Assembly (NCBI GenBank): GCA_041891055.1
Contig: CP169074.1
Coordinates: 640,001-704,000 of the forward strand
Direction: 5' to 3'
DNA: 64,000 bases
From: Halorutilales archaeon Cl-col2-1
Lineage (GTDB): Archaea > Halobacteriota > Halobacteria > Halobacteriales > Afararchaeaceae
In this document: positions 28,167 to 44,018 of the stretch, one piece after another
Position numbering within the stretch: position 1 is the stretch's first letter
Layout of the letters: every line of letters starts with the position of its first letter
Made by a program: the position numbers and the translations under genes
The notes under the pieces: model-generated
Told to the model about the DNA's origin: nothing
What the model saw: only the letters and a program-made list of their open reading frames with translations
The model's database searches: none

Positions 28167-28169
28167 ATA

Positions 28170-28892
28170 TCATATATATAGTGACGGCAGAAGTCCCACT
28201 ACTACCACGAACTCAATCAGGTTGTTGAGGAAATGCATCAGCCACGCTCCTGTCAGACTGTCGTACCTGAGACGGAGCCAGGTCAGGAGTAAACCCAAGA
28301 GTAAGGCGTTTATGACCCCCGCGACACCTGCTGTGAAGACATGTATCAGACCGAAGACGAGTAATGAAATCACCCCAGCCGTGGCTTGGGTGTGTCCCCG
28401 TTCGAGTAGTATTCCGAGTAACAGACCGCGGAAAAGAAGCTCCTCGGCTACTGGAGCCACAACCACAGCCACCAGAAACACCGACACGGCTTCGGGAGTC
28501 GAAGAGAATGCCGGAGGAGTATACCGACTGACACCGAGGACATCCGAGAGAAGAGTCGTAGTCCGCCATCCGACCGCCACACCTAACACTGTTGCTAAGA
28601 CTCCTGCAACGGTCTCAGACCTCGAAGGACGTCTCGCAGCCCTAATAGCTTCCCAGACATCGTCGCTGACACGTAGATACACGGCTACGAGGGTTCCGAC
28701 GTTAGCGACTCCGTAAACTACGGTAGGGAGCTTCGAGAAGATCCGTGTGTCGTCTCCTCCGTTGACCGTATAGACGAGGGTGACAGCCACTAATGTCACG
28801 ACGATGGGAGCGAGTGGTACGGCTGCCCACCGTGTCCCGAGTTGTGAGAGGGGAGTGACAGTCCTCTCAAGACGCTCTTGGGAGGCAAGCAT
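28170..28892 (-). CDS. CPBP intramembrane metalloprotease
   Basis: APVAEELLFRG, FGLIH and HFLNN motifs; ATG at 28892. Confidence 0.8.
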   Translation of the reverse strand: MLASQERLERTVTPLSQLGTRWAAVPLAPIVVTLVAVTLVYTVNGGDDTRIFSKLPTVVYGVANVGTLVAVYLRVSDDVWEAIRAARRPSRSETVAGVLATVLGVAVGWRTTTLLSDVLGVSRYTPPAFSSTPEAVSVFLVAVVVAPVAEELLFRGLLLGILLERGHTQATAGVISLLVFGLIHVFTAGVAGVINALLLGLLLTWLRLRYDSLTGAWLMHFLNNLIEFVVVVGLLPSLYI

Positions 28893-28983
28893 CCCATCTA
28901 AGGAGTATAAGAGGAGAGTCACAAAACTTCCGGGTCTACCGAGGCACAGATTATATAAATTAGTCAGGACAATTCCGTCCGAA

Positions 28984-29736
28984 ATGATAGAACACGAGAA
29001 GAGAGGCGACGCTTTCTGGATAACCATAGACCGTCCCGAGAAGATGAACTCGCTCGACCTCGAAGACTGGGAAGGTATCTCGGACGGGCTCGAAAAAGCG
29101 GAGGAAGAGGCGAGGGTCGCAGTCATAACCGGTGTGAACGACGTCTTCTGTGCGGGTGACGACATACAGGTTCTTGACGACCTCGACGACGCCGACGACG
29201 TCGAGAAGCTCGGCGAGATGCTCTTCGACGTTCTTCAGGGAATAGAGGAGACGGGAGTGCCTGTGATAGCCGCTGTCAACGGACTCGCATACGGTGGCGG
29301 ATTCGAGATAGTCGCGGCGTGTGACCTCGCAGTCGCGGCTCAGGGTGCTTCGTTCGCGCTCCCCGAGACACGTATAGGCGCGTATCCGCCCTACGCCGTC
29401 GAGAGGGTCGCCGAGATGGCGGGACGTAAGAGAACGATGGAGATGATACTCACGGGAGAGTCGATAGACGCCGAGACCGCCCTCGACTGGGGACTCGTCA
29501 ACCGCGTGGTTCAGAAAGACGAGATAGAGGAGACTGTCGACGAGTTCGTCGAAGCGATCTGTATGTCGCCCAAACGTTCGACTAAGATCGCTAAGAAGTA
29601 CGCCAACCAGCGGATCTCCGAGACGGGAGAAAAGGAGAGGATGCTCGGAGGCTTCGCACATCTGTTCATGTCGGAGGAGTCACAGGAAGGCGTCAGAGCC
29701 TTTGTGGAGGACAGGGAGCCGTCGTACAGGAAGTAG
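28984..29736 (+). CDS. Enoyl-CoA hydratase/isomerase family protein
   Basis: IDRPEKMNSL, FCAGDDI, AAVNGLAYGGGFE and PETRIG motifs. Confidence 0.88.
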   Translation: MIEHEKRGDAFWITIDRPEKMNSLDLEDWEGISDGLEKAEEEARVAVITGVNDVFCAGDDIQVLDDLDDADDVEKLGEMLFDVLQGIEETGVPVIAAVNGLAYGGGFEIVAACDLAVAAQGASFALPETRIGAYPPYAVERVAEMAGRKRTMEMILTGESIDAETALDWGLVNRVVQKDEIEETVDEFVEAICMSPKRSTKIAKKYANQRISETGEKERMLGGFAHLFMSEESQEGVRAFVEDREPSYRK

Positions 29737-29786
29737 CGATCGGCGTCCTTCGTGGGAAATAAGATTTCGGAGTTCGACGTCGAAGC

Positions 29787-30713
29787 ATGGAACTCAAAGA
29801 CTCGTCGGTGCTCGTAACGGGCGGAGCGGGATTCATAGGAAGCCATCTGATCGAACGTCTCCATCCGTCGAACCACGTCGAGGTCGTCGACAGCCTGAGT
29901 TCGGGGAACGCCGACTACCTCCCCGACGAGGTCAAGATACACGAGGTCGACCTACTTGACACAGACGCCCTCTCCGAGGTCATGAAGTCTGACTTCGACT
30001 TAGTGTTTCACTTAGCCGCGAACCCCGACGTCAGAAGCGGTGCGGAGAAGACGAGCCTCGACCTCGAACAGAACACGGTCGCGACTAACAACCTCCTTGA
30101 GTCGATGAAGGCAAACGGCGTCGACAAGATAGCGTTCACTTCGACGTCGACGGTATACGGCGAGGACGTTCCGATGCCGACTCCCGAGACGTACGGTCCT
30201 CTGAAGCCCATCTCGCTCTACGGAGCCTCGAAGCTGGGATGTGAGGGACTGTGTACGGCTTACGAGGGTAGCTTCGGATTCGACACGTGGATATTCAGGT
30301 TCGCTAACATAGTGGGTGAGAGAGGACACGGCGTAGTCCCCGACTTCGTCGAGAAGCTGGAGAACGATCCCGAGAGACTCGAAATACTCGGCGACGGCAG
30401 ACAGAGGAAGTCATACCTACACGTCTCCGACTGCGTAGACGCGATGGTACATGCGGTCGAGAACGCCGACGGTACTGTCTACAACATCGGAAGCCGTGAC
30501 ACCGTCTCTGTCACAGAGATCGCAGAGATAGTTAGTGAGGAGATGGGTCTCGATCCCGATTTCGAGTACACGGGTGGACGACGCGGCTGGACAGGCGACG
30601 TCCCTGAGATGAGACTTTCTGTCGAGAAGCTAATGGATACGGGATGGCAGCCCCAACACGACAGCGAGGAAAGCGTCAGAAAAGCTACGCGAGAGATCAG
30701 TTCTAGCCCCTGA
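29787..30713 (+). CDS. NAD-dependent epimerase/dehydratase (UDP-glucose 4-epimerase-like)
   Basis: VTGGAGFIGSH, STSTVYG, YGASK and RFANIVG motifs. Confidence 0.9.
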   Translation: MELKDSSVLVTGGAGFIGSHLIERLHPSNHVEVVDSLSSGNADYLPDEVKIHEVDLLDTDALSEVMKSDFDLVFHLAANPDVRSGAEKTSLDLEQNTVATNNLLESMKANGVDKIAFTSTSTVYGEDVPMPTPETYGPLKPISLYGASKLGCEGLCTAYEGSFGFDTWIFRFANIVGERGHGVVPDFVEKLENDPERLEILGDGRQRKSYLHVSDCVDAMVHAVENADGTVYNIGSRDTVSVTEIAEIVSEEMGLDPDFEYTGGRRGWTGDVPEMRLSVEKLMDTGWQPQHDSEESVRKATREISSSP

Positions 30714-31449
30714 GTCGTTCCTGTATTCCGACCTTGAGTACCGACTTGGCTATCTCAGCACCTCCTGAGAGGGGATCGAGCTTCGAGTCGCCCGCCCTCT
30801 CACGGTACTCTATGGGTATCTCACGCACATCGTAGCCTCTCATCACGGGTCTCATCAGAAGCTCAGCGGAGAGACCCGTGTTCTCTGTCCAGTCTACCGA
30901 CTCGACGACCTCACGTCTGTAGGCACGCATTCCCGTGGTGGTGTCGTGGACACGTCTTCCCATGAGGACTGTCGCTGTCAGTGCGAAGACGACGTTTCCG
31001 AGACGGTTCATCGACGGCATCGCGTCGGCACCGTGGTAGAGTCTGTCGCCGCTCACGACGTCGTATCCCGAGTTTATGGCTTCGAGAAACTCGGGTAGCT
31101 GTTCCATCGGGTAGGTGTCGTCACAGTCGGTCGTGACTATCACCTCCCTGTCGGGTGTGAGAACAGCCTCACGTACTGCGACCCCGTAGCCCTGGGGCTC
31201 CTGTTCTATCACCCTCGCCCCCTTCTCCCTCGCTATCTCCGGGGTCGCGTCGGAGGAGCCGTCGACACAGACCACCTCGGCTTTACCGTCGGTGACCTCA
31301 TGAATGTCGTCGAGAACCTTTCCGACAGCTTCCTCCTCGTTGTAAGTCCCCATTACGACGCTGACGTCTGTGAAGTCGTATCCGTCGTGGCTTTGGCTCG
31401 CTGTCTCGTCCTGTGTCTGAGTCTGAGTCGTGAGTGTCTGAGACGACAT
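30703..31449 (-). CDS. GT2 dolichyl-phosphate hexose transferase-like glycosyltransferase
   Basis: GTYNEE, VCVDGSSD, GYGVA, TTDCDDTYP (DxD), DTTTGMRAY and YRERAGDSKL motifs. Confidence 0.85.
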   Translation of the reverse strand: MSSQTLTTQTQTQDETASQSHDGYDFTDVSVVMGTYNEEEAVGKVLDDIHEVTDGKAEVVCVDGSSDATPEIAREKGARVIEQEPQGYGVAVREAVLTPDREVIVTTDCDDTYPMEQLPEFLEAINSGYDVVSGDRLYHGADAMPSMNRLGNVVFALTATVLMGRRVHDTTTGMRAYRREVVESVDWTENTGLSAELLMRPVMRGYDVREIPIEYRERAGDSKLDPLSGGAEIAKSVLKVGIQERLRG

Positions 31450-31487
31450 CTGTGTAGTCGTAGATGTGTCCCCGCCTACTTAACTTC

Positions 31488-31501
31488 TTAGGTTAACCTA
31501 A
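31488..31501. promoter_or_regulatory. Putative DtxR-family operator box TTAGGTTAACCTAA
   Basis: Perfect 14-bp palindrome about 40 bp upstream of the GT2 gene; one of four related boxes. Confidence 0.75.
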
Positions 31502-31504
31502 AAA

Positions 31505-33145
31505 TCAGAGGTACTCGTCTATGTGGTCGGCAGCCTTGAGCGAGAGGGCGGCTATCGTGAGGGTAGGGTTCATCGCGCCGCTCGTGACAAAGACGCTACT
31601 CCCGGCTATCCAGAGGTTGTCGAGGTCGTGTGTCCTCATACGCGGATTCACGACCGACTCGTCAGAGTCGGTTCCCATCCGTGTGGTTCCCATGTGGTGG
31701 TAAGCCGGACCCGTGTTCTCGGGACTGACCTGCCACGTCACCTCGGCTCCCATCTTGGAGAGTATCGCCTCCTGTACCGTGTTCGCACGACGTATAGAAC
31801 GTCTCGTGACCTCGTCTATCTCCCAGTTTATTTCGGGGACAGGATTGCCGTTGTGGTCGGTCTTCGAGGAGTCGAGTCCGACGTAGTTTTTCTTCCGGGG
31901 TCTCTGACCCACGAGACCGCCGACACCGACCGAGTTTCCGTACGAGTCCCTGAGATCCGAGAGGAGTGAGTCGCCCCAGTCGTCGGAGCTGAGCGCAGTC
32001 TCGACTGGGGAGGGTCCTGCGTAGTTGAGGAACTCGATCTTTATCGGAGTGAGAGACGACCTGTCTACGTCGGCGGAAGGGACGCCCTCGGTCGACTTAG
32101 CGGGTCTGTCGTAGAACTCGTGGCTCTCGCTCGTGATGAAGCCGACGTGGTTCTGGCGCGTCCTCTCGTCGAGTACGCCTCCCGTTCCCGCGAAGAGATG
32201 CTCCATGAAGTAACGTCCGACAGCGCCGCTGGAGTTACCGAGTCCGTCGGGGTACTTCTCCGACTTCGAGAGGAGAAGGAGACGCGGGTTCTCGATCCCT
32301 CCACACGCGACCACGAAGACACGTGCCTCCTGTCTGTGTCTCTCGCCGTCAGGGGTGACATAGACGACCGACTCGACTGAGTCGCCCGTGCGGTCGTGTT
32401 CGAGACGGACTGCGGTCGATCTGTCTATCACGCGCGCACCCTCCTCCTCCGCCTTTCTTACGTCACGGGTCGCGTCGTACTTGGCTCCCGAGGGACAGAC
32501 GGGGTCACAGGTGCCGTATCCGACACACGCTGGCTCGCCGTCGTACGACTCGGAGTTACGCGCGTTCGGAACTCGATGTACTCTGATACCGAGTTCGTCA
32601 CACGCCTCCTCGAAGAGGGAGTCGGAGTAAGACGGTTCGAAGCCCGGTAGGGGATACTCGTCGTCTCTAGGGGGTGCAAAGGGGTTGTCGCCGCTACCCG
32701 AGACTCCTAAACGTCTCTCCGCCTCGGCGTAGTAGGGCTTGAGGTCGTCGTAGCTCAGAGGCCAGTCCCTCGCGACTCCGTGTCTCGTCCGTGTCTCGAA
32801 GTCGGACTCGTGGAGACGCATCACCATTCCCTGCCAGTGAAGGGTCGATCCCCCGACAGCCTTGACACGTGTCGCGTTGAGAGGGTAAAAGAGGTCGCCC
32901 GACGAGGTGTAGGCGTCACGTTCGCCTCCCATCTCCCAGACTGAGAGGTCGTCGTGTCCGGGTCTTATCGACCTCTCCATCCTCTCGTCCCTGTCTCGCG
33001 GGTCGAACCTCTTTCCGGCTTCGAGAACGGCCGTCTCGTGTCCTCTCTCTGAGAGCTCGTGAGCTATCAGTGCACCCGCAGGACCCGATCCTATTACACA
33101 GACGTCGACCCTCTCCGACGGCGTCCTGTCGGTCTCCTCAGACAT
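31505..33145 (-). CDS. GMC-family FAD oxidoreductase (gluconate/glucoside dehydrogenase large-subunit-like)
   Basis: IGSGPAG, VGGSTLHW, Cys cluster CVGYGTCDPVCP, HHMGTTRMG and NPTLTIAAL; start at 33145. Confidence 0.9.
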   Translation of the reverse strand: MSEETDRTPSERVDVCVIGSGPAGALIAHELSERGHETAVLEAGKRFDPRDRDERMERSIRPGHDDLSVWEMGGERDAYTSSGDLFYPLNATRVKAVGGSTLHWQGMVMRLHESDFETRTRHGVARDWPLSYDDLKPYYAEAERRLGVSGSGDNPFAPPRDDEYPLPGFEPSYSDSLFEEACDELGIRVHRVPNARNSESYDGEPACVGYGTCDPVCPSGAKYDATRDVRKAEEEGARVIDRSTAVRLEHDRTGDSVESVVYVTPDGERHRQEARVFVVACGGIENPRLLLLSKSEKYPDGLGNSSGAVGRYFMEHLFAGTGGVLDERTRQNHVGFITSESHEFYDRPAKSTEGVPSADVDRSSLTPIKIEFLNYAGPSPVETALSSDDWGDSLLSDLRDSYGNSVGVGGLVGQRPRKKNYVGLDSSKTDHNGNPVPEINWEIDEVTRRSIRRANTVQEAILSKMGAEVTWQVSPENTGPAYHHMGTTRMGTDSDESVVNPRMRTHDLDNLWIAGSSVFVTSGAMNPTLTIAALSLKAADHIDEYL

Positions 33146-33677
33146 CTGGACCCCTCGTGTAACTCGAAGTACCGCCCGGATGTCCCTGTGGGTTCTCAAG
33201 ACCCACTAGCTCGCCTCCCGTAGGTGTGGTGTAGAGGGCAAAGAGTAGCTCGTTTACGACGTGGTACCTCACCGCCTCGACTCCTGATCCCTCGGGGTCT
33301 GGGTCAGCCGTGTCCGCGCCCATCGCCCTGAGAGCCTCGTCCCTCTCGTCGCGGCTAAGGTCGGCGAACCGGTCACCGTACCACGACTCAGCGTACTTGT
33401 CGAGATAGGCGACCGCATCAGAGAGGCGTTCGGCACGGTCGGGCGAGTCGTGTGCCCGGCTGAGAACGTACGAACTCACGAACTCCTCGGTCTCGTCGGC
33501 TTCGAGTTCGGAGGGGTAGACAGTCTGGGCGGCGGCGACGAATACTTCGACCTCTTCGTCGGTGAGGGGTTTTGTCCCCTGATCGGATTCCTCGGACTCC
33601 TCGACAACGACTAAAGACGCGCCTCCGACACCGACGGCAGCAAGCGCAGCCATCAGGTCACGTCTCGTGAGCTTCAT
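33138..33677 (-). CDS. Gluconate 2-dehydrogenase subunit-3-family protein with Tat signal
   Basis: MKLTRRDL twin-arginine; F.DLS..ERD and LY..P.G...G..N..G.PGG motifs; overlaps the GMC gene. Confidence 0.8.
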   Translation of the reverse strand: MKLTRRDLMAALAAVGVGGASLVVVEESEESDQGTKPLTDEEVEVFVAAAQTVYPSELEADETEEFVSSYVLSRAHDSPDRAERLSDAVAYLDKYAESWYGDRFADLSRDERDEALRAMGADTADPDPEGSGVEAVRYHVVNELLFALYTTPTGGELVGLENPQGHPGGTSSYTRGPDV

Positions 33678-35695
33678 ACTTCCCCCTCGGTTTCGGCGTG
33701 AAGGTCGGTTCTGACGAAGACGCCTTCGGGAGACGACTCTGGGACATAGGCTCCGCCGTAGCCGTCACACAGACGTACGTCGTCACAGTACTTCTTCCGA
33801 GGTGTGAGTCCACGTACTCCCGTCTCAGACTCGACAGGTAGTGAGAGACGGTACTCGAAGCTGTTCCCGAAGCCCTGGTCTACGAAGACTACGACTTCGA
33901 CGGTCGAGGAGTCTCCGAGTTCGACAGAGACGTTTTGAGTTGAACCGGAGCTCGAGACAGACCTAAGACGAACCTCGTCCCGTGTCACGCCGAGACTGAG
34001 ATTCACTGACTCCGACCCTGAGGCGTCGGGGAAGGTCACGAACTCGGTTCCCTCGTCGGTCGTTACGGTCGCTGTGATCTCGTCGTCTTCATCGGGGTCG
34101 GGAATCCCGAGAGTAGCGTCGAGGCTGAGACGGCTGCCCTCAACGTGTTCGATCTCTTCGAGACGCGCTGTCTCGGGAGAGCCGTCACCGGGCGACCAGA
34201 CGCCGCGGTACGAGTACCTGTAGAGAGTCCTGTCGGGGTACTCGTCGACAAGATCGAAGGGTCTGTCGTCGATCACATAGATGGCGTCGCCGTCGTAGTC
34301 GGGACTGTTCCGGAGGTACTGGAAGGGATGAGCCAGCCAGTCGCCGTACGGGTCAGGAAGAAACACGACCGCGTTCTCGAAAGACGTCTCCTCGAAGGGC
34401 TCGTAGACATCGGAGTAGGTTCGTGTAACCTCGGCGTTCCGGGAGATCTTCTCCTCCGCCTCGACGGCTGTGACGCCACCGAAGACCGCCGCCGACAGAA
34501 GCACGACGGCTGTGATACCTCGTGTGCTCACGCCTGTCCTGAGACGTCTGTAGAGACCCACCGCACCCGCCGACGCGAACGCCGCGGTCGGAACCAGGAG
34601 GTCGAAGTGGTAGTAGGGTCCGAAGAACGAGACTAAGCCGTCGCCCGCGGCGTCGAGGTCTCCGAGTATGTTGAAGTTGCCCCAGAAGTAGAGGTTTCCA
34701 GCGATCACCGAGACGAAGATGCCTGCGACGGTCGCCTTACGTCGGTCGATCCCGTCGTCGAAGGCAACGAGTAGACCGACTACTGCGAGGAGCCCTCCTA
34801 AGACGCCGCCCGCGATCCAGTCGGTGAAGAAGAGCCTCACAGCCTCGTAGTTCGACCTGAGGGCGAGTTCGGGCGTGTATACTATCTCGTGGCTGAGTAT
34901 ACGCCGTCTCCCGAATCCGATCCCGTCGAGCGGAGCGAACTCAAGGTAGGGAAATCCAAGAGGCGATCCCGTCATAACGGCGTTGTAGGCGACTGTGGCG
35001 GCGACTCCCGAGAGTCCGAGGACGGCGGTGGCTGTCTGTCTCGGGACTGCGACCCGCGGCTCGGAGTAGACTGTGTAGACGGCATGGACTATGAAGGGGG
35101 CTGCGAACAGAACCGCTGTGTAGGGACGTGCGAAGAAAGACAGACCGACTCCGACGCCGGCTAACGAAGCCCATCTGAGGTCGTTGAGACGGTCGGCTCG
35201 GAGGTACGAGTAAGCGAATACGAGGTTAAGGAGGGTCGTCGGCGCGTAAGGCAGGAAGACAGACGCGTCGACGATAAAGATGGGTGAGGCACCGACGAAG
35301 ACTGCCGCGAGGACTCCTGTTACGGAGTCGAACGCCTCACGTACCGTCGCAGAGACAAGTACGAGGACTCCGACAGAGACGCCGACAAGAGAGAGACGGT
35401 ATCCGCCGAGTAGCTCTCCGAGACTGAAGATTACCGCCGGGACGGGCGAGTACTTGGGGTAGAGACCGTCGTCGCCTTCGACGAAGAACCACGGCCGGAA
35501 GACACCCTCGACAGGTGGTTTAAGCCTCAGCTTTCCATCGAGGAGCATCGAAGCGTGGTGGAGATAGACCCCTTCGTCGTGGTTGAGAGAGTGGTACGCG
35601 AAGACGTCGGTAGAGACGGTCCAGACTACAATGCCCCCGAAGACGGCGACTAAGGCTGTGGCTATGGCTGTACGTTGACTTTGTTCGGTTTCCAT
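33674..35695 (-). CDS. GT-C (ArnT/PMT-like) integral membrane glycosyltransferase
   Basis: NHDEGVY acidic motif after TM1, about 11 TMs, FFARPYTA, C-terminal extracellular domain. Confidence 0.8.
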   Translation of the reverse strand: METEQSQRTAIATALVAVFGGIVVWTVSTDVFAYHSLNHDEGVYLHHASMLLDGKLRLKPPVEGVFRPWFFVEGDDGLYPKYSPVPAVIFSLGELLGGYRLSLVGVSVGVLVLVSATVREAFDSVTGVLAAVFVGASPIFIVDASVFLPYAPTTLLNLVFAYSYLRADRLNDLRWASLAGVGVGLSFFARPYTAVLFAAPFIVHAVYTVYSEPRVAVPRQTATAVLGLSGVAATVAYNAVMTGSPLGFPYLEFAPLDGIGFGRRRILSHEIVYTPELALRSNYEAVRLFFTDWIAGGVLGGLLAVVGLLVAFDDGIDRRKATVAGIFVSVIAGNLYFWGNFNILGDLDAAGDGLVSFFGPYYHFDLLVPTAAFASAGAVGLYRRLRTGVSTRGITAVVLLSAAVFGGVTAVEAEEKISRNAEVTRTYSDVYEPFEETSFENAVVFLPDPYGDWLAHPFQYLRNSPDYDGDAIYVIDDRPFDLVDEYPDRTLYRYSYRGVWSPGDGSPETARLEEIEHVEGSRLSLDATLGIPDPDEDDEITATVTTDEGTEFVTFPDASGSESVNLSLGVTRDEVRLRSVSSSGSTQNVSVELGDSSTVEVVVFVDQGFGNSFEYRLSLPVESETGVRGLTPRKKYCDDVRLCDGYGGAYVPESSPEGVFVRTDLHAETEGEV

Positions 35696-35724
35696 CGTCT
35701 ACCTCGTACTCGTAACCACGTGGT

Positions 35725-37341
35725 TCACCCGTCACCCTCCTGTGATATTATCACGACCATCGAGAGTCCCGAGACTGCGACCAGGACGAAGGCGGGGACG
35801 GCTGCCTGGCTGTAGAGTCCCGCTTCCTCGACCCGCCAGATGTAGGTCACGAGAGTGTCAAAACCCATGGGTCGGAGTACGAGTGTCGCGGGGAGTTCCT
35901 TCATAGTCGTGAGGAAGACTAGTGCCGCTCCCGTGGCTATTCCGGGGAGTACAAGCGGGAGTGTCACTGATCTGAACGCCTCGAGACGCGAGCTTCCGAG
36001 TGTGCGTGCCGCTTCGACTAGCTCAGTGTCGACCTGTAACGTCGAGGCACGTACAGAGCCTATCGCCTGTGGTGTGAAACGGACGACGTAGGCGAAGACT
36101 AAGAGGGGTACCGTCTTGTAGAGCGACGGCAAGACGTCGAGGCTGAATCCCACGAGGGCGATCGCTAGGACGATACCTGGGGTTGCGTATCCGACATACG
36201 GAATCCGGTCGGCTACGAAAGCCAGCTTTGAGTCGGAGACCGCCGACCTGAGGGCTATCGGGAACGCAACTACGACCGAAGCAACGGCGGCTAAGAGGGA
36301 TACATAGACCGAGTTCCAGCCGTACTCCCACGAGAACGACATCGTACCCGTGGCGTAGCCCGGCTGGTTGGTGAAGAGCCACGACCCGAATATAACAACG
36401 GGAAGGAGGACAGCCGCAAGTCCCACCACAGCTGGGAATACGACCGCGGGATACTGCCATCTTCCGAGGAGGTTGAGGCTTCCGACTCCACGTCTCCCAC
36501 GGCTCTCGTATGCCTTAGATTCGTCGACCCCTATACGTGATTCGATCATGAGTATGAGTGCGGTAATGCCGACGAGCTGGAGAGACAGGAGAGCGGCGTA
36601 GTCGCGCATGAATGCGTTGTAACGCGCGTATATGAACTGGGTAAAGACCTCAACGCGCATTATGTTCGGGGTTCCGAAGTCGGAGAGTGTGTAGAGAGCG
36701 ACGAGGAGAGCACCCGCTGTTATTCCCGGGGTTATCTGGGGGAGTATGACACGTCTGAACGACTCCCATCTGCCACAGTTGAGGCTCCGCGCCGCCTCGA
36801 ACAGCGACGCGTCGAGCGAGAGGAGAGACGCACGTGTCGTGAGAAAGACATACGGGTAGGTATACAGAGTCAGAACCACCGCGGCACCTGCGAAGCCGTA
36901 TATCTCGGGTAGTCTCTCGACGCCGAGAGGAGCAAGAACGTCAGCGAGAGTTCCACGAGGACCGAAAGCCGAGACGACAGCGAAAGCCCCGAGGTAGCTG
37001 GGTATTGCGAGCGGGAGAGCCGCAATTACCGTCCACGCCCGTCTGAGAGGTACGTCCTGTACGGTGAGGACGGCGAGAGGAACTCCTATGACGACGCTCG
37101 CTCCGGTGACCACGGCGACTAAGCCGACGCTTCTCACAAGAACCTCCAGTGTCGTTGAGTCAGTGAGAAGATCGAGGGATTCGGCTCCGAGACCCAGTAC
37201 ACCGACGAAGAGCCAGCTAAGCGGGAAGACAAGTAGGAGTGCGAGCACGAGACCCACGAGGGTCATGCCTGTACCGAGGGCGTCCGTGGTGTCACCGGGG
37301 AGCCTCTCCCGCGCCGTACCGATCAGCCTGTCAATGTTCAT
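35725..37341 (-). CDS. Fe3+ ABC transporter permease (FbpB type)
   Basis: Two EAA motifs (EAARSL, EAARTLG), LSDFGTP and KELPATL. Confidence 0.88.
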   Translation of the reverse strand: MNIDRLIGTARERLPGDTTDALGTGMTLVGLVLALLLVFPLSWLFVGVLGLGAESLDLLTDSTTLEVLVRSVGLVAVVTGASVVIGVPLAVLTVQDVPLRRAWTVIAALPLAIPSYLGAFAVVSAFGPRGTLADVLAPLGVERLPEIYGFAGAAVVLTLYTYPYVFLTTRASLLSLDASLFEAARSLNCGRWESFRRVILPQITPGITAGALLVALYTLSDFGTPNIMRVEVFTQFIYARYNAFMRDYAALLSLQLVGITALILMIESRIGVDESKAYESRGRRGVGSLNLLGRWQYPAVVFPAVVGLAAVLLPVVIFGSWLFTNQPGYATGTMSFSWEYGWNSVYVSLLAAVASVVVAFPIALRSAVSDSKLAFVADRIPYVGYATPGIVLAIALVGFSLDVLPSLYKTVPLLVFAYVVRFTPQAIGSVRASTLQVDTELVEAARTLGSSRLEAFRSVTLPLVLPGIATGAALVFLTTMKELPATLVLRPMGFDTLVTYIWRVEEAGLYSQAAVPAFVLVAVSGLSMVVIISQEGDG

Positions 37342-37348
37342 ACTCGTC

Positions 37349-38524
37349 CTATCCCGAAACTCCGGCTTCCCTCATGAGTTCGAGCGTGGGTTCAAGGTCG
37401 GAGAGCTCGGCTAGGTCGATCTCCGGAGGACTAAGCTCGTCGACAGTCGGCAGGTCTCCAACAGGCTCGACGCCCTCTATCATGGGGTAAGCGAAGCTCA
37501 CGGTAGTGAAGAACTCCTGAGCCTCCGAGGAGAGGAGATGGCGGACGAAGTTGTTGACGAGTTCGCCCTTCTGGGTTCCCTTTATACGTAAAGCCCCCGC
37601 GACGTTGACGAGAGCCCCAGCGTCACCCTGTGTGAACGCGAGATCTATGGGTGCGTCGGGTCTCTGGTTCTTGACCCTCATGGCGTAGTAATGGTTGGCG
37701 AATCCGGCGTCTAAGGCTCCGTCGGCGACCTGCTGTGAGACGACGTACTCGTTCGAGAAACGCTGTGTGCCCGCCTCACGCATCGAGACGAGCCAGTCAC
37801 GTGTGGCTTCACGTCCTTCGAGTATTCTCATCGCTGTCACGAACGACTGGAAGGCTCCGTAGGTAGGTGCCCATCCCATGCTTCCCCTGAGCGCCTCTGT
37901 TTCAGGGAACTCCTGAACCTTGTCGGGAATATCGTCCTCACTCAGACGGTTGGTGTTGTACGGTATGCTCCTCGCACGTCCCGCGACACCCACCCAGGCG
38001 TTGTCGGAGCCTCTGAAGCTCTCGGGAACCGGACTTACAACCTCGTCGCCGAGTGGCTCGTAGGCGTCGTTGTTAGCCACGTAGCTCAGGGAGCTAGCGT
38101 CGATAGACCAGAAGACGTCAGCCTGTGGAGCACCCCTGTTGACCTCGTTGACTACCGTCTGCGCGAGCGACGCAGAGCCCGCCGAGCTCGGTAGAACCTC
38201 GAAGTTGGGGTAGATCTCCTGTAACATATCGACGAACTCCATGTAGATACCTCCCTCTCCACCGCCTATGTAGAGGTTTAGTGTGCCTTCTAAGTCGGGG
38301 AGATCCTGTATCGAAGTACCTCCCGGCGCGGGACGTCCCTCGGCTAGGGCTCCCGATCCCCTGAAGCTACTCAGGGAGGGTATCTCGACCTCGTCCGTCG
38401 AGCCTGATCCCGACTCGTTTTGACTCCCACCACCCGTCAGACCCGCACATCCCGCGAGACCCGTCATAGAACCCGCACCCAAGACCTTCAGAACACGCCG
38501 TCTCGTGTAGCTGTCGTCGTCCAT
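37349..38524 (-). CDS. Fe3+ ABC transporter substrate-binding Tat lipoprotein (FbpA/FutA type)
   Basis: TRRRVL and LAGC lipobox; ADVFW, R...YNT and NHYY tyrosine pair. Start at 38524. Confidence 0.85.
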   Translation of the reverse strand: MDDDSYTRRRVLKVLGAGSMTGLAGCAGLTGGGSQNESGSGSTDEVEIPSLSSFRGSGALAEGRPAPGGTSIQDLPDLEGTLNLYIGGGEGGIYMEFVDMLQEIYPNFEVLPSSAGSASLAQTVVNEVNRGAPQADVFWSIDASSLSYVANNDAYEPLGDEVVSPVPESFRGSDNAWVGVAGRARSIPYNTNRLSEDDIPDKVQEFPETEALRGSMGWAPTYGAFQSFVTAMRILEGREATRDWLVSMREAGTQRFSNEYVVSQQVADGALDAGFANHYYAMRVKNQRPDAPIDLAFTQGDAGALVNVAGALRIKGTQKGELVNNFVRHLLSSEAQEFFTTVSFAYPMIEGVEPVGDLPTVDELSPPEIDLAELSDLEPTLELMREAGVSG

Positions 38525-38528
38525 ACTT

Positions 38529-38542
38529 TTAGGTTCACCTAA
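38529..38542. promoter_or_regulatory. Putative DtxR-family operator box TTAGGTTCACCTAA
   Basis: Palindrome 4 bp upstream of the Fe-binding protein ATG. Confidence 0.75.
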
Positions 38543-38547
38543 ACACA

Positions 38548-39696
38548 TTAAACGCTTGCGGTTTGTGTCGTCTCGGAGAGGTCTTCGAGGCAGTCGAGCC
38601 AGTCGTGCATATACTCGCCGCAGTAGCTAAGGAACTCGCCGTTGTTGAGGTCATCCCAGTCGCCCTCGACGAGTGAGTCGGCTATCTCTTCGAAGACCTC
38701 CTCGTACGACTCAGCGTCGTCACCGACCGAGTCGACAGTCTCCCAGAGATGCTCGTTGAGTTCGAGACCCGCGACCTCGTTCTGTAGGTCGCTGAAGGTC
38801 GACCGCGGAGCCTTGTTGTGCTCACACAGCGGAGCACCGTTGTAGATACGTCTGTCGAGGACGTCACACGCGCGTTTAAGGAAGATACCCGACCAGATGT
38901 CGTCGAACCTGCCGACCTCCCACGGGTTGTCGTCCATCGGAAGCTGGTAGAAAGCGGGTATTATCTCGGGATCGAAGGCGAGATTCATCGAACAGACCGT
39001 GAGGTAGTTACGGCGCGCTGCTACGAAGTCGTCGCCGAAGTCGTCAGGCGTGGTACGTGTCTGTGCCTGTCCGTTGAGGTCACCGTCCATCAGAATACGT
39101 ACGGCGTCGAGGTCGGGTACGTTAGTCCAGAGACCCTGTGACGCGACTACGCCGTCGACCTCAGTAGTTTTGGTCGAGACGTCCTCGTCCATCGCGGAGT
39201 AGGGGTAGCCTCGGGGATACAGACCCTTCTCGTCGACGCTCTGATACAGCACGTTGACCCAGCTCTCGTCCGACGAGACCTCTGTGATCTCTCCCTCGAA
39301 CTCCAGGTTCTCGAGATGGTGACCGAAGAAGTCGTAGTCGTCGTGGGGCAACGTGTCGTCGTCTATGAAAAAGCAGTAGTCAAAGTCGTTCGCCCAGACG
39401 TAGAGTAGACCGAAGCTCGTCTGTGCGTGGCTAGCCTCAGGTATCAGATGTGAGTACTCGTCGATGCCGTGTTTGGAGAACCAGTCGTCGCGCCGGCTAC
39501 TGTCGAATACCTCACCAGAGACCCCCTCGTCTTCGAGCATCCGCTCCATCTCGTCGGTGTCACAGAAATCCTCGGTCACGAGTAGAACGTGGAGACGTGA
39601 GAGGTCGAAGCCGTGTTGGCGTGCGTTCTCGAAGTAGCTTCTCATACAGCCGTACTCACGTATCGTGGGAACAACTACGCAGATGTCAGAGTCCAT
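38548..39696 (-). CDS. Reversibly glycosylated polypeptide / GT75-like protein (often annotated alpha-1,4-glucan-protein synthase)
   Basis: VVVPTIR, FIDDD, YPRGYPYS, QGLWTNVPDLDA, CSMNLAF and GRFDDIWSG motifs. Confidence 0.82.
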   Translation of the reverse strand: MDSDICVVVPTIREYGCMRSYFENARQHGFDLSRLHVLLVTEDFCDTDEMERMLEDEGVSGEVFDSSRRDDWFSKHGIDEYSHLIPEASHAQTSFGLLYVWANDFDYCFFIDDDTLPHDDYDFFGHHLENLEFEGEITEVSSDESWVNVLYQSVDEKGLYPRGYPYSAMDEDVSTKTTEVDGVVASQGLWTNVPDLDAVRILMDGDLNGQAQTRTTPDDFGDDFVAARRNYLTVCSMNLAFDPEIIPAFYQLPMDDNPWEVGRFDDIWSGIFLKRACDVLDRRIYNGAPLCEHNKAPRSTFSDLQNEVAGLELNEHLWETVDSVGDDAESYEEVFEEIADSLVEGDWDDLNNGEFLSYCGEYMHDWLDCLEDLSETTQTASV

Positions 39697-39710
39697 CGAG
39701 TCGTAGTTTT

Positions 39711-39724
39711 TTAGGCAAGCCTAA
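39711..39724. promoter_or_regulatory. Putative DtxR-family operator box TTAGGCAAGCCTAA
   Basis: Extends to TTTTAGGCAAGCCTAAAA; 14 bp upstream of the GT75 ATG and overlapping the upstream gene's stop codon. Confidence 0.75.
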
Positions 39725-40737
39725 AAGACTTCGGATTCTTCGTGAGTTGAGGAGACCCCAAGCGACGGGAACGCGATGCCACCGCCGACAAGGGTCACCG
39801 CGTTCTTGAGGAGATGGTCGAGTGCCGCCGCGGCGAGTGCGACTGACGGTTCGACTGTCGAGAGAGCCACGAAGACAGCGGTGAAGCCACCCTCGTAGAG
39901 TCCGACGCCCCCCTGTGAGAGCGGGAGTACCTTGGCTAGGTTACCGACGCTCACGGCTAGACTTCCGAGAAGAAGAGCCGTCAGGGGCTCGAGTGGAACC
40001 CCGACAGCGTAGACGACAGCTACACCCGTGAGGACGTCGAGGAGCCAGACCGCCGTGGTTCCGGCTCCGACATAGACGAGGCTCCTCGGCTGCCCCGCGA
40101 CACAGAGTACGTCTGAGACGAAGTCACTCAGGGTCTCGAAGACCGAAGACAGTCTTCCTCGAAGAGTCAGACGCGGGAGACGTCTGTATACCAAGGCTAC
40201 TCCGATGCCGACTCCAACAGCTCCTCCGGCTACGCCTAAAGCCGTCTGACCTCCAAAGGGTAGCCGCTGTGTCACACGGACTCCGCTCAGATGTAGAAGA
40301 GACGCCGAGACCACAGATATTCCGAGTACAGCGGCTAAGTCGAAACCTCTCTCGACGACGAGCGACGCCGCACCTGTGGTGTACGGGACGTCGGATCTCG
40401 ACTTGAGTATGTAGGCACGCACGGGATCGCCGCCCCTCGCCGGGAGCACGAGGTTGACGGTCTGGCTAGCGAGTACCGCCATCGTGAGGAGGCTGAGACC
40501 GTCTGTGTGCCCCATTGAACCGAGTATGTCGGAGTAACGTCTCCCACGGAAGAGCCACGAGACGGCATAGACACAGACGCCGACCCCGAGGAGAAGAGGA
40601 TCGGCAGACACGGCTCCTTCGACCGCGTCGTCGAAGTCGGCGTCCCCAAAGGCTACGAGGAGACCGCCAAGAGCTAAAGCTGTACCCGCGACTGCGAACA
40701 GACCGCGTCTCGACGTCCACTGTCTCACGAACTCCAT
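39721..40737 (-). CDS. Lysylphosphatidylglycerol-synthase TM-domain (flippase-like, AglD2-like) protein
   Basis: R..R, NLVLPARGGD..R, ER.FD and P.SQGGVGLYE motifs; multi-TM. Confidence 0.8.
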   Translation of the reverse strand: MEFVRQWTSRRGLFAVAGTALALGGLLVAFGDADFDDAVEGAVSADPLLLGVGVCVYAVSWLFRGRRYSDILGSMGHTDGLSLLTMAVLASQTVNLVLPARGGDPVRAYILKSRSDVPYTTGAASLVVERGFDLAAVLGISVVSASLLHLSGVRVTQRLPFGGQTALGVAGGAVGVGIGVALVYRRLPRLTLRGRLSSVFETLSDFVSDVLCVAGQPRSLVYVGAGTTAVWLLDVLTGVAVVYAVGVPLEPLTALLLGSLAVSVGNLAKVLPLSQGGVGLYEGGFTAVFVALSTVEPSVALAAAALDHLLKNAVTLVGGGIAFPSLGVSSTHEESEVF

Positions 40738-40751
40738 CTACCTCGTATTTT

Positions 40752-40765
40752 TTAAGCCAGCCTAA
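40752..40765. promoter_or_regulatory. Putative DtxR-family operator box TTAAGCCAGCCTAA (one mismatch)
   Basis: 14 bp upstream of the first gene of the cluster, flanked by T and A runs. Confidence 0.65.
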
Positions 40766-40821
40766 AAAACTTCGTATATCCGACAGTGTCGAGTCTGAAG
40801 AAAAGAGAAATACGTTCTACT

Positions 40822-42075
40822 CTACTGAGTACGTCTTCTGCTGTCCGAAGCGAGAGCGTCGTCGTAGAGCTTGATGAAGAGATCCTCTATCTCTTCCTTC
40901 GAGGGCTTCCTCGGGTTGTTGTCGGGCGATCCCGAGTCGACGGCGTCCTGTGCCATCTTCGGAACGACCTCGACGTACTCGCCGCGGTCGGGTACCTCAC
41001 CGAAGTCGTCGAGGTACGAAGTGAGCTTGATGTCCTCACACAGCTCCATGACTGCGTCGCTTGCCTTCTTAGCCGCTTCCATGTCGGTGTCGTCGTCGTC
41101 CGCCGCTCCCATGATACGTGCTATCTCGGCGTACTTCTCGGGTGCCGCCATCGCGGAGAACTCTATGACGTACGGGAGTATGAGTCCGTTGGCGAGTCCG
41201 TGGGGGATATGTAGCTGTGCTCCGAGGGGACGTGCCATTCCGTGGACGAGTGCGACAGACGAGTTGGTGAAAGCCTGTCCCGCCTGAAGCTGTCCTATCA
41301 TCATGTCGGTACGCGCCTCTATGTCGTCTCCGTTCGCCCACGCCTTTCTGAGCGAGTTCGAGATGCGCTCCATCGCGTTCTCGGCGAAGTTGTCGGGGAC
41401 GCTGTACGACTTGACAGAGACGTACGCCTCTATTGCGTGAGTCAGAGCGTCTATTCCCGTGAACGCGGTGTGGCTCTCGGGGAGCGACATCGTCATCTCG
41501 GGGTCTTCTATAGCGACGTCGGGAACGACGTTCTTCGAGACTATGAGGAACTTCGTAGAAGTCGACTCGTCGGTGACGACGACCGAACGCGTCGCCTCAC
41601 TTCCCGTACCGGCTGTGGTGTTGATCGAGATCGTGGGAGGTGTGGGCTTGGGAACTCCCTCGTATCCCGCCTTGTCGACTCCGAAGTCACGTATCTCGCC
41701 CTCGTTCGAGGCGACAATTCCGATTCCCTTTCCTGTGTCTATCGACGATCCTCCGCCGAGGGTGACTATGACGTCACAGTCCTCTTCCTCCCATACCTCG
41801 TAGCCGTCCTCTATGTTCTCGACAGTCGGATCGGGTCTTACGCCGTCGAAGACAGCGGTCTCGACTCCGGCGTCTTCGAGTATCTCGACGACTTGGTCGC
41901 CGTAGAAGCCGTAGAGATCCTCTGTCGTGACGACAAGAGCCTTGCTTCCGTAGACGTCAGCGTACTCGCCTATCTTCTGTATCGCTCCTCTCCCTATCTC
42001 TATCTTTCCGGGAGAGACGACGAGACGCGTGCCGTTCGACGGATCGGGGTACTTAGTCTGGTCAGGTTCTGCCAT
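40822..42075 (-). CDS. Iron-containing (type III) alcohol dehydrogenase
   Basis: GGGSSID, TTAGTGSE, DALTHAIE and HGMA...HG metal ligands. Confidence 0.9.
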   Translation of the reverse strand: MAEPDQTKYPDPSNGTRLVVSPGKIEIGRGAIQKIGEYADVYGSKALVVTTEDLYGFYGDQVVEILEDAGVETAVFDGVRPDPTVENIEDGYEVWEEEDCDVIVTLGGGSSIDTGKGIGIVASNEGEIRDFGVDKAGYEGVPKPTPPTISINTTAGTGSEATRSVVVTDESTSTKFLIVSKNVVPDVAIEDPEMTMSLPESHTAFTGIDALTHAIEAYVSVKSYSVPDNFAENAMERISNSLRKAWANGDDIEARTDMMIGQLQAGQAFTNSSVALVHGMARPLGAQLHIPHGLANGLILPYVIEFSAMAAPEKYAEIARIMGAADDDDTDMEAAKKASDAVMELCEDIKLTSYLDDFGEVPDRGEYVEVVPKMAQDAVDSGSPDNNPRKPSKEEIEDLFIKLYDDALASDSRRRTQ

Positions 42076-42253
42076 ACAATTGAGTTTTCTTAAGAGAAGT
42101 TTATAACTTATGATAGACGGTTAGGAAAAACAGAACGACAGAACGGGTACTTACCGATGCCACCCCTTTCCACCAGTATAGTACAGCCTATAAGACAGGG
42201 GTCGCGTAAAAATACCTGTCCCTTCTACATAAGATACTACACTAGTAGTCGTA

Positions 42254-42476
42254 CTATACAGCCGCCGTGTCGGGCATCTCGTGTCTCCGTATCAGGTAGA
42301 ACGCGCCCGTCAGAACACCGAGGAGGAGAGCGTACGCTGCAGCTGTGACAAGGGCGTCGGTGGGAGTAGCGTACTTGTCGGCGCGGTATGTGATGATCTT
42401 CCGTCCTATGGCTATCATGCCCGATACGACGACTATACGTATCACAGGCTCGTCTCGGCTGTAAGCTACGACAGTC
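42254..42476 (-). pseudogene. C-terminal fragment of a PsiE-like membrane protein gene split by the IS
   Basis: TVVAYSRDEPVIRIVVVSGMIAIGRKII (PsiE-like IA..RK.I); continues the fragment at 44019-44245. Confidence 0.75.
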
Positions 42477-42501
42477 GTCAACCGCCTCGGGGTCAAGCCC
42501 C

Positions 42502-42550
42502 GTCCCGAGAGCTTTGCTCTCGCGGGCTCGCAAATCGAAGATTTGCGAAC
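42502..42550. repeat. 49-bp double mini-hairpin cassette inside the right-end hairpin of the IS
   Basis: CGAGAGC-TTT-GCTCTCG (42506-42522) and TCGCAAATC-GAA-GATTTGCGA (42528-42548); removing it restores GCCTCGGGGTCAAGCCCCGAGGC. Confidence 0.8.
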
Positions 42551-42574
42551 GAGGCTTGTCAGTGGACTCCCGCT

Positions 42575-43996: not shown

Positions 43997-44018
43997 GGGT
44001 ATCCGCCTCGCTATCTCT

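Follow-up and report, generated by a model that had tools for sequence, protein, structure and literature searches.

To our knowledge, the way in which haloarchaea acquire iron from brines, in which Fe(III) hardly dissolves, has been established only for species that produce siderophores. FbpABC, HitABC and FutABC are bacterial Fe3+ importers, and we know of no bacterial Fbp system with linked glycosylation and dehydrogenase genes. Three-component systems of extracytoplasmic glycosylation include GtrA/B/C, ArnC/ArnT, AglD/AglR/AglS and Ppm1/PMT, and in mycobacteria a decaprenyl-phosphate-arabinofuranose route feeds GT-C arabinosyltransferases. Among the GT75 mutases are MtdL and Hyg20 of actinomycetes and the UDP-arabinopyranose mutase of plants (PMC9937993), and flavin adenine dinucleotide (FAD)-dependent sugar dehydrogenases are represented by the gamma–alpha–beta complexes of FAD-glucose dehydrogenase of Burkholderia cepacia and fructose dehydrogenase of Gluconobacter (PMC6719666). 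In Haloferax volcanii, the DtxR-family iron repressor is TroR, whose motif, TTTAGGC-NNN-CCTAAAANAN, was derived from chromatin immunoprecipitation sequencing (ChIP-seq) peaks in a 2023 study and mediates iron-dependent repression in reporter fusions, often via tandem sites about 30 bp apart (PMC10783522). Relatives of these importers, glycosylation enzymes and dehydrogenases lie together behind TroR-type boxes in the DNA described here, a 64,000-nucleotide stretch (the window) of Halorutilales archaeon Cl-col2-1, contig CP169074.1, positions 640,001 to 704,000. We lean toward reading this locus as the core of a haloarchaeal iron-starvation regulon, in which an FbpABC importer is accompanied by an accessory sugar and dehydrogenase unit that aids iron capture.

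The open reading frame (ORF) list of the window places eight co-directional minus-strand genes head to tail at 30703–40737. A preliminary description of the locus had proposed an iron-regulated system coupling Fe3+ uptake to lipid-linked glycosylation and an exported sugar oxidase, and the families it named for the eight genes agree with Pfam and NCBIfam matches. In the order of transcription, the genes encode a stand-alone flippase-like membrane protein with an LPG_synthase_TM/MprF-type domain, an accessory member of the cluster (39721–40737; PF03706, 4e-40; TIGR00374); a cytoplasmic GT75 (RGP-like) protein, probably a nucleoside diphosphate (NDP)-sugar pyranose/furanose mutase (38548–39696; Pfam RGP, 1.5e-19); an FbpA-class Fe3+-binding lipoprotein with a twin-arginine translocation (Tat) signal and a lipobox (37349–38524; SBP_bac_6, SBP_bac_8, SBP_bac_1 and SBP_bac_11 matches); the fused two-domain ATP-binding cassette (ABC) permease of the importer (35725–37341; two BPD_transp_1 stretches); a GT-C glycosyltransferase made up of a membrane domain, approximately residues 1–436, and a C-terminal beta-sandwich DUF7846 (33674–35695; Pfam PMT_2 and DUF7846); the small subunit Gluconate_2-dh3, a "hitch-hiker" partner of the dehydrogenase (33138–33677; PF13618, 5.5e-11; twin-arginine motif TRRDLM); a GMC-family FAD dehydrogenase with 3Fe-4S ligands (31505–33145; GMC_oxred_N and GMC_oxred_C); and a dolichyl-phosphate hexose transferase of family GT2 (30703–31449; Glycos_transf_2 and an NCBIfam NF041391 equivalog match). 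Two gene starts were revised: that of the binding protein was moved to the ATG at 38524 (MDDDSYTRRRVLKVLGAGSMTGLAGC), which yields the Tat motif and lipobox, and that of the GMC gene from 33199 to the ATG at 33145. Between the five genes from binding protein to GMC, the intergenic spacers measure 7, 29, −4 and −8 nt, the start of the small-subunit gene overlapping the GT-C stop by 4 nt, and the genes for binding protein, permease, GT-C, small subunit and GMC dehydrogenase thus look like one operon. Pfam searches over the cluster genes found no ABC ATPase, an absence on which the preliminary description had not remarked.

Four TTAGG-N4-CCTAA boxes had been noted at gene starts in the cluster; three of them are exact and the fourth has one mismatch. 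The mismatched box (TTAAGCCAGCCTAA, 40752–40765) ends 15 nt upstream of the ATG of the flippase-like gene, and the same site is present in a congeneric genome. The exact boxes end 15 nt upstream of the GT75 ATG (TTAGGCAAGCCTAA, 39711–39724), 5 nt upstream of the binding-protein ATG at 38524, where the box heads the five-gene operon (TTAGGTTCACCTAA, 38529–38542), and 39 nt upstream of the GT2 ATG, the last of these being fully palindromic (TTAGGTTAACCTAA, 31488–31501). All four read TTTTAGGCTTGCCTAAAAAA or close variants, form with their flanks the palindrome TTTTAGG-N4-CCTAAAA, and at 5–39 nt from the ATGs coincide with, or come directly after, the places where promoter elements are expected. 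The experimentally derived TroR motif is the same palindrome (PMC10783522), and the earlier suggestion of a DtxR-type operator is thereby borne out; the prediction that the box serves as a TroR-type operator in this organism is supported by the match. One difference is that the motif in H. volcanii lies about 100 nt before start codons (PMC10783522).

Chance palindromes or generic promoter elements are an extremely improbable source of these boxes. Such elements could account for the A/T-rich edges and for the overlap with the expected place of the TATA box, and the pattern is unenriched in the window once two mismatches are allowed (12 found against 11.99 expected), so only exact and one-mismatch sites carry weight. 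The counts of exact sites contradict a chance origin: the window has 3, against a mean of 0.01 in shuffled sequences, none of 100 shuffles reaching 3, and the entire 2.06-Mb genome (four contigs, 99.5% complete) has only 7. The box also recurs ahead of the same genes in genomes with as much as 71% G+C, and it is identical to a motif validated by ChIP-seq and reporters (PMC10783522).

A position-weight matrix built from related loci found only 12 sites of at least 14 bits genome-wide, of which four are the cluster boxes. The other eight comprise one before an orphan ABC ATPase gene, two at a gene for a PGF-CTERM protein, two in a single intergenic region, one before a ZIP transporter gene and two others; in this small genome, the regulon is almost wholly this cluster and metal transporters. 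Tandem boxes occur at two places in the genome, with spacings of 26 and 32 bp. Two DtxR-family proteins (PF01325; 84.1 and 56.4 bits), one of them 156 residues long, score above the Pfam cut-off, and either paralogue may read the box; control of the cluster by a TroR-type repressor is, as a prediction from sequence, strongly supported. The repressor would bind the 16-bp palindrome T-TTAGG-YNNR-CCTAA-A, which overlaps or directly follows the promoters of four predicted transcription units, namely the flippase-like gene, the GT75 gene, the operon from binding protein through permease, GT-C and small subunit to dehydrogenase, and the GT2 gene, while a fifth box would control the ABC ATPase. In its iron-bound form the repressor would shut these units off, and iron shortage would lead to derepression. 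A search for a regulator inside the locus gave none: the 11 ORFs found behind extra boxes in related loci have no DNA-binding domain.

The orphan ATPase has a TOBE domain and is encoded at 178476–179702 of genome contig 1, with an exact box in the spacer before the gene. It is 52–60% identical to the ATPases encoded inside the cluster in 9 related loci and, given this identity and its own box, we regard it as the relocated missing subunit. The importer is thus complete, with binding protein and permease in the cluster and the ATPase at a separate boxed locus. Among solved structures, the binding protein has 28 matches, each of them a ferric-binding protein (7w3w, 7.6e-50; 4elo, 5.3e-38), in agreement with its first labeling as an Fe3+-binding lipoprotein. 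Its Tyr222 and His278-Tyr279-Tyr280 align with the tyrosines of 4elo, which we take to be iron ligands as in other ferric-binding proteins, and are kept in 63 of 64 orthologues. The assignment of binding protein, permease and ATPase to an FbpABC-type Fe3+ importer is strongly supported by these similarities. It shares with the bacterial FbpABC, HitABC and FutABC importers the homology to solved FbpA, HitA and TtFbpA, the Tyr-Tyr pair and third Tyr, a permease that is here a fused two-domain protein and an ATPase that here has a TOBE domain. In contrast to those systems, the binding protein is exported by the Tat route as an archaeal lipoprotein, has a long disordered tether and carries an additional conserved motif near its N-terminus, and the importer is genetically tied to glycosylation and dehydrogenase genes.

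The "Fe3+" label could reflect annotation habit for a transporter whose real cargo is a sugar phosphate, thiamine or a phosphonate; a precedent is an "Afu" transporter, which bore a ferric annotation for a long time until sugar phosphates were reported as its substrates. The best NCBIfam matches here are indeed PhnU2 for the permease (122.8 bits against a cut-off of 593), PhnT2 for the ATPase and thiamine-/phnS2-type for the binding protein (E ~2e-6), all of them, including every match of the permease, far below their cut-offs. The uniformly ferric structure matches, the retention of the four ligand-position residues and the position of the importer genes behind an iron-repressor operator nevertheless make a substrate other than iron very unlikely. 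The genome contains no FecCD permease and no IucA/IucC synthetase, and FeoB_N has only weak matches, in frames of 278–423 residues (NRAMP was not searched for); on these grounds, the cluster looks like the main iron-acquisition system of the organism.

To see how the cluster is kept among relatives, we used two partly overlapping sets of loci. The GT-C protein served as anchor for the first, which drew on the genome itself and 30 relatives from its order; a match was found in 24 of the 31, and 20 loci from about 18 families were fetched and their neighbors counted within roughly 10 kb of the GT-C gene. The binding protein is present in all 20, GT75 in 19 (the one miss being at a contig end), GT2 in 18 and the permease in 17, followed by the small subunit (13), the GMC dehydrogenase (12), the ATPase (9), an epimerase (7) and the flippase-like gene (6). 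The second set, of 49 loci, several on contigs that end early, was anchored on GT75 and includes the genera Halorussus, Halorientalis, Natronomonas, Halosimplex, Halonotius, Natrinema, Halolamina and Halomicrobium; here the binding protein was found in 45 loci, the permease in 43, GT-C in 40, GT2 in 36, the small subunit in 30, the ATPase in 29, GMC in 17, the flippase-like gene in 9 and the epimerase in 6. The epimerase of the window, a possible accessory, is a GalE-like NAD-dependent sugar epimerase encoded on the plus strand at 29787–30713 (Pfam Epimerase, 8e-54), convergent with the GT2 gene and without a box in this genome.

The boxes are conserved together with the genes across the haloarchaeal families; a lack of co-conservation, which the preliminary description named as grounds for refuting its idea, is not what we see. 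We counted 57 exact boxes in 19 noncongeneric GT-C-anchored loci from genomes of 59–71% G+C and 133 exact boxes in the 957 kb of the GT75-anchored set. Their distances to the start codons of a given gene are broadly alike among the loci: mostly 5–12 nt (up to 21) for the binding protein, mostly 13–22 nt (up to 35 in a few) for GT75, 7–12 nt for the small subunit, and mostly 32–37 nt (9–37 overall) for GT2. In five genomes with the GMC pair away from the cluster, the best GMC orthologue has an exact box directly upstream in every case. A second, more distant GMC/small-subunit pair in one relative (51–54% identity) has no box, and a congeneric genome has a second GT75 copy (61% identity, contig 59:6263–7387); there are thus paralogues that do not belong to the iron regulon.

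The GT75 protein was found in 21 of 201 genomes of a phylum-wide sample, all 21 in the order of the window and none in other orders. Five near-complete genomes (98–99%) lacking GT-C or GT75 gave no match with our queries to GMC (0 of 5) or GT75 (0 of 5), while all five encode an FbpA-like binding protein accompanied by a permease, an ATPase and two or three boxes. With so few genomes, some of them related (two pairs share a family), the joint absence is an indication and not a statistic. On this pattern, the ferric importer with its boxes would be the general element, to which GT75, GT2, GT-C and the dehydrogenase are added as an accessory unit; that these genes are present or missing as a whole, beside the importer and in the same regulon, is strongly supported. 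One genome without GT-C, GT75 and GMC matches keeps a cluster-type binding protein (~50% identity, with the G-S-G of its N-terminal motif kept and Thr70 replaced by Arg), the permease and the ATPase, and may have lost the glycosylation unit recently.

Experimental data bearing on the locus exist for H. volcanii, whose genes HVO_1613 (annotated as GT2), HVO_1704 (RGP family), HVO_1705 (iron ABC binding protein), HVO_1708 (GT39) and HVO_1294 (GMC) we infer to be orthologues from their annotations, their order and sizes, the NCBIfam equivalog and the unusual TTTGG box variant shared before the GT2 gene. TroR peaks are reported at HVO_1613, HVO_1704 and HVO_1705 (Table S3, PMC10783522), and HVO_1613 and HVO_1704 are within the 26-gene high-confidence TroR regulon. 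According to the same study, deletion of troR raised the RNA of HVO_1704, HVO_1708, HVO_1294 and HVO_1613 by log2 values of 1.57, 1.42, 1.30 and 1.21, respectively, and low iron that of HVO_1294 by 2.09 (adjusted P value 1.5e-5), HVO_1704 by 1.81 (adjusted P value 0.029) and HVO_1708 by 0.97 (adjusted P value 0.047). At the protein level, we computed ratios of the mean membrane-fraction areas, six values in each condition, of iron-starved over normal cells from a supplementary table of PMC11349517, and obtained 3.2-fold for HVO_1705, 3.0-fold for HVO_1613 and 1.5-fold for HVO_1294. HVO_1705 is also a proven Tat lipoprotein (PMC12462473). As far as the main texts of PMC10783522 and PMC11349517 were covered, both are silent on these genes, and "glycosyl" occurs in the former only in the reference list. 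The two regulons resemble each other in having the same operator and tandem sites and in that the GT2, RGP, binding-protein, GT39, GMC and ZIP families, with members that are TroR-bound or derepressed in H. volcanii (PMC10783522), carry boxes here. Unlike in the window, where they form one cluster, the GT2 and GMC genes are scattered in H. volcanii, and siderophore synthesis genes and FecCD transporters, which make up much of that regulon, were not found in the Cl-col2-1 genome.

The TroR regulon of H. volcanii includes cbiCE, hutH and several hypothetical genes, for which no role in iron is evident (PMC10783522); an HVO_1708-GFP fusion localizes to midcell, and recovery together with a divisome protein is reported for HVO_1708 (bioRxiv 10.64898/2026.07.16.738847); and the importer occurs without the unit. 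The glycosylation and dehydrogenase genes could accordingly be TroR-controlled for envelope or cell-division remodeling under stress, or for passing electrons from a surface sugar to respiration, with no part in iron capture, and their place next to the importer would then reflect nothing more than co-regulation. We consider this rather unlikely, given that gene order with the importer and the box of each transcription unit persist over about 18 families and 59–71% G+C, that relocated dehydrogenase or GT2 genes keep their box, and that the regulon of this genome contains little besides the cluster and metal transporters.

If the accessory unit does contribute to iron capture, as we prefer, the kind of chemistry may be judged from its enzymes. 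The best solved relative of the GT75 protein is MtdL (2e-21), a Mn-dependent NDP-pyranose-to-furanose mutase (PMC9937993). The residues Asp112-Asp113-Asp114, Arg162 and His293 align with the DXD motif (Asp109–Asp111), the auto-glycosylated Arg159 and the Mn-binding His287 of MtdL, and four of the seven sugar-binding residues of MtdL, namely Asp195, Ser228, Arg257 and Asp260, are kept as Asp195, Ser236, Arg263 and Asp266. The DDD motif, Arg162, Asp195, Ser236, Arg263, Asp266 and His293 are invariant in 62–63 of 63 orthologues. The protein, first labeled simply RGP/GT75-like, can therefore be placed more finely within its family: it most resembles the NDP-pyranose-to-furanose mutases, with which it shares the DXD motif, the auto-glycosylated Arg and the Mn-binding His (PMC9937993).

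The GT2 protein scores 400.5 bits on the NCBIfam equivalog model NF041391, "dolichyl-phosphate hexose transferase" (cut-off 375), and does not reach the AglJ model (143 bits against a cut-off of 325). HVO_1613 is reportedly a dolichyl phosphate (Dol-P) glycosyltransferase without a role in N-glycosylation. The flippase-like protein carries the NCBIfam label "flippase-like domain" and is a candidate Dol-P-sugar flippase on the basis of its family. A cis-prenyltransferase gene about 7 kb from the cluster (22875–23726, minus strand) belongs to the undecaprenyl-diphosphate-synthase family, enzymes of the kind that build the dolichol backbone, and has no box near it.

For the GT-C protein, no sequence match was found among solved structures in the PDB, and its assignment follows from the AF2 model (pLDDT 87.4, pTM 0.88), by the fold of which it is a GT-C enzyme. 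A Foldseek search with the model gave 32 matches at E ≤0.001, all of them GT-C enzymes or the related GPI-transamidase subunit, the best being PglB (3e-7) and ArnT (4e-7). PglB, ArnT, STT3, ALG, Aft, Pmt and Emb are about equally near, and because protein-, lipid- and glycan-modifying neighbors score alike, the acceptor is not readable from the fold. Asp40 and Glu41 in the first extracytoplasmic loop are invariant in all 27 sequences compared, and their counterparts are presumably catalytic in other GT-C enzymes. The Dol-P-hexose equivalog GT2, the MprF-type flippase-like protein and the GT-C enzyme with its invariant Asp-Glu in the first outer loop are the parts expected of three-component extracytoplasmic glycosylation. 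The locus differs from such systems in that a GT75 mutase-like enzyme stands ahead of the pathway, only a minority of loci include a dedicated flippase gene, and the whole pathway is predicted to be iron-regulated.

The adjacency of the GT-C and binding-protein genes raises the possibility that the sugar is placed on the importer itself. The two genes are neighbors in 20 of 20 loci and directly adjacent in 9, with only the importer permease or ATPase between them elsewhere, and PMT_2 is the protein O-mannosyltransferase family. Cluster-associated binding proteins further share an extra motif at residues 54–80, F-R-G-S-G..G-R-x-P-G-G-T-S..D-L-P-D-L, which is near-invariant in 37 sequences (G56 in 37, S57 in 36, R64 in 36, G69 in 36 and P76 in 37) but which four of the five binding proteins in genomes lacking the glycosylation unit do not have; alignments to bacterial FbpA structures begin only near query residues 110–133. 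GT-C might thus glycosylate the FbpA lipoprotein at or near this motif, the sugar being needed for stability, positioning or iron loading and the dehydrogenase modifying the protein-bound sugar. Thr70, considered as a strictly conserved acceptor within the motif, was rejected as such: it is kept in only 33 of the 37 sequences, the four exceptions having Val or Pro. The motif is moreover modeled as an ordered part of the fold (pLDDT 74–97) and not as a free linker, its G-S-G part is kept in one genome without the glycosylation unit, and Foldseek places GT-C no nearer to protein-modifying than to lipid- or glycan-modifying enzymes. A complex prediction for the whole GT-C with binding-protein residues 75–391, a cut that removed most of the motif, scored 0.00 and gave no answer. 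HVO_1705 is also not among the proteins in the H. volcanii glycoproteomics supplements examined, the cultures for which were not iron-starved. On this evidence, glycosylation of the importer is a doubtful explanation of the unit.

The second enzymatic activity predicted for the unit is that of the GMC pair. The best solved relatives of the GMC protein are the alpha subunit of FAD-glucose dehydrogenase (1.2e-80) and the large subunit of fructose dehydrogenase (3e-73); the alignment to 8hdd and 6a2u covers residues 8–542 and includes the FAD-linking His. Cys225, Cys231 and Cys235 (numbered in the 564-residue frame), spaced Cys-x5-Cys-x3-Cys and kept in 25–26 of 26 orthologues, align with Cys212, Cys218 and Cys222, which hold a surface 3Fe-4S cluster in FAD-glucose dehydrogenase (PMC6719666). 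The enzyme is thus predicted to be of the FAD and 3Fe-4S dehydrogenase type. As in the Burkholderia and Gluconobacter complexes, the FAD-binding His and the three Cys are present (PMC6719666), and a small partner with a Tat signal is encoded just upstream of the GMC gene. In contrast to them, no cytochrome c subunit is encoded in or near the cluster, the Cys of the inter-subunit disulfide is replaced by Val, and expression is predicted to be under an iron repressor operator. As no membrane cytochrome c subunit was found among the ORFs at 28000–44000, the pair appears to be a two-subunit variant and not of the three-subunit type. An exported sugar oxidase made up of a GMC protein and a subunit 3 had been proposed for these genes; the pair and its Tat signal hold, and the type is now narrowed to an FAD and 3Fe-4S dehydrogenase without a cytochrome partner in the cluster.

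Taken in sequence, GT75 would convert an NDP-hexopyranose to its furanose form, GT2 would load the furanose sugar onto dolichyl phosphate, and the sugar would be flipped outward, here by the stand-alone flippase-like protein. GT-C would then transfer the sugar to a cell-surface acceptor near the FbpA lipoprotein, where the Tat-exported FAD/3Fe-4S dehydrogenase would oxidize it. The resulting keto or acid sugar might hold Fe(III), or electrons passing via the surface 3Fe-4S cluster might mobilize Fe(III), and either outcome would feed the importer without a siderophore. The order of furanose donor, polyprenyl-phosphate carrier and GT-C is alike in logic to the mycobacterial arabinofuranose route. 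In its most specific form, this amounts to a haloarchaeal siderophore-independent, sugar-based iron capture, in which a Dol-P furanose is fixed beside or on the FbpA lipoprotein and oxidized, chelates Fe(III) or reduces or dissolves Fe(III) minerals, and the iron is handed to the importer. We offer this detailed version tentatively, as a possibility and not as the probable outcome.

Several observations weigh against assigning the sugar and dehydrogenase unit to iron capture in an iron-starvation regulon. In H. volcanii, the RNA of the importer genes HVO_1705–HVO_1707 shows no induction at low iron (log2 −1.1 to −0.9, not significant), these genes are absent from the troR-deletion sheet, and HVO_1613 RNA is unchanged at low iron (log2 0.41, adjusted P value 0.57), all according to PMC10783522; by the PMC11349517 ratios, HVO_1708 protein is likewise unchanged at iron starvation (1.0-fold). 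The apparent orthologues do respond, being TroR-bound or derepressed and in part induced by iron starvation, so that a lack of iron responsiveness, the other refuting outcome named in the preliminary description, is not observed either; low iron does not, however, raise the RNA of the importer genes or HVO_1613. The orthology itself is apparent, judged by annotation, gene order and size, the equivalog and box variants rather than by direct sequence alignment. Like HVO_1705, the proteins HVO_1704, HVO_1708 and HVO_1613 are not in the glycoproteome-study supplements examined.

Within the pathway, GT75 has His90, Thr115 and Met237 in place of the MtdL sugar contacts Asp87, Asn112 and Gln229, which sets it apart from MtdL and fits a different sugar. 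The flippase, presented in the preliminary description as a member of the pathway, is of the expected family but only an occasional neighbor (6 of 20 and 9 of 49 related loci), and in five genomes that lack a copy beside the cluster, the best-matching flippase domain is part of a fusion with an AglD-like GT2 and has no boxes. The cluster encodes nothing that would accept electrons from the dehydrogenase, and an iron-sulfur enzyme induced during iron shortage is counterintuitive. The importer is independent of the glycosylation and GMC genes and does not need them, since boxed FbpABC is present without the unit in all five genomes lacking it. The link from the sugar genes to iron capture, be it by chelation, reduction or glycosylation of the transporter, is accordingly the part of our interpretation that comes from inference only.

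Each part of the locus is of a known kind, and the regulatory link is already present in published supplementary data; what appears to be new is the combination and its conservation across the order. In the literature searched, neither the combined module nor its conservation throughout the order is described; Leyn and Rodionov 2015, which falls outside that search, may already predict some of the regulon members. Searches with the locus tags HVO_1613, HVO_1704, HVO_1705, HVO_1708 and HVO_1294 gave nothing on a function in iron, neither "reversibly glycosylated" nor GT75 was found in the haloarchaeal papers searched, and a Halobacterium iron-network paper contains no "glycosyl" and no GMC. The original remark that no characterized pathway has this composition holds for the module as a whole; its link to iron was, however, already contained, undiscussed, in published supplementary tables.

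In this genome, in which no siderophore synthesis genes or FecCD were found, the iron regulon is essentially this cluster. Across many haloarchaeal families, a ferric importer is linked through gene position, a common operator and joint presence and absence with a glycosylation route and a surface sugar dehydrogenase, which points to an undescribed helper mechanism of iron capture. If true, this would provide a first function for archaeal GT75 proteins, for DUF7846 GT-C enzymes, for HVO_1613 and for two-subunit haloarchaeal GMC dehydrogenases. H. volcanii offers a direct test ground, as the genes, a regulator mutant and omics baselines exist.

Some of the remaining high-scoring boxes lie at loci of separate interest. 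Two exact boxes, 2 and 28 nt from the ATG, precede the gene for a secreted PGF-CTERM protein of 196 residues (contig 1:1459357–1459988). Its sequence shows five N-glycosylation sequons, a Ser-rich stalk and a helical domain, the last of these including a His-rich stretch (HESHHDNWE). Only the congeneric genome yielded a real homologue, so that conserved membership in the regulon was not borne out, and the protein may be a lineage-specific surface metal-binding protein. The position of these two boxes between the PGF-CTERM gene and two MoeA genes had prompted the idea of a role in molybdenum or tungsten metabolism; the boxes abut the PGF-CTERM ATG and are 68–94 nt from MoeA, and the idea was dropped because the motif turned out to be that of TroR.

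Two further boxes, one exact and one with a single mismatch, stand 32 bp apart (contig 1:436919–436964) in a 660-bp spacer between convergent LeuRS and M48-peptidase genes, in which no ORF of at least 25 amino acids starts downstream of them. A structured RNA behind this double box was considered and rejected, as there is no Rfam match and a 296-nt minus-strand stretch folds like its shuffles (z −0.69); the boxes could control an iron-regulated small RNA or microprotein. A weaker box (TTTGGTTTACCAAA) at contig 1:1779622 lies 49 nt before the gene of the ZIP-family metal transporter and parallels HVO_1003 of the published TroR regulon.

Within the window, the cluster is followed on its upstream side by an iron-type alcohol dehydrogenase gene (40822–42075) and, about 1.8 kb upstream of the cluster, by a TnpB/IS605 OrfB-like gene with a Cas12f1-like TNB domain and a RuvC-like domain (42575–43804, minus strand), the former lying between the cluster and the latter. 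Near the other end of the window, a family-B DNA polymerase gene of 1672 codons (1670–6688, plus strand) is interrupted by intein sequence, with Hint and intein-splicing domains in two regions and a LAGLIDADG domain.

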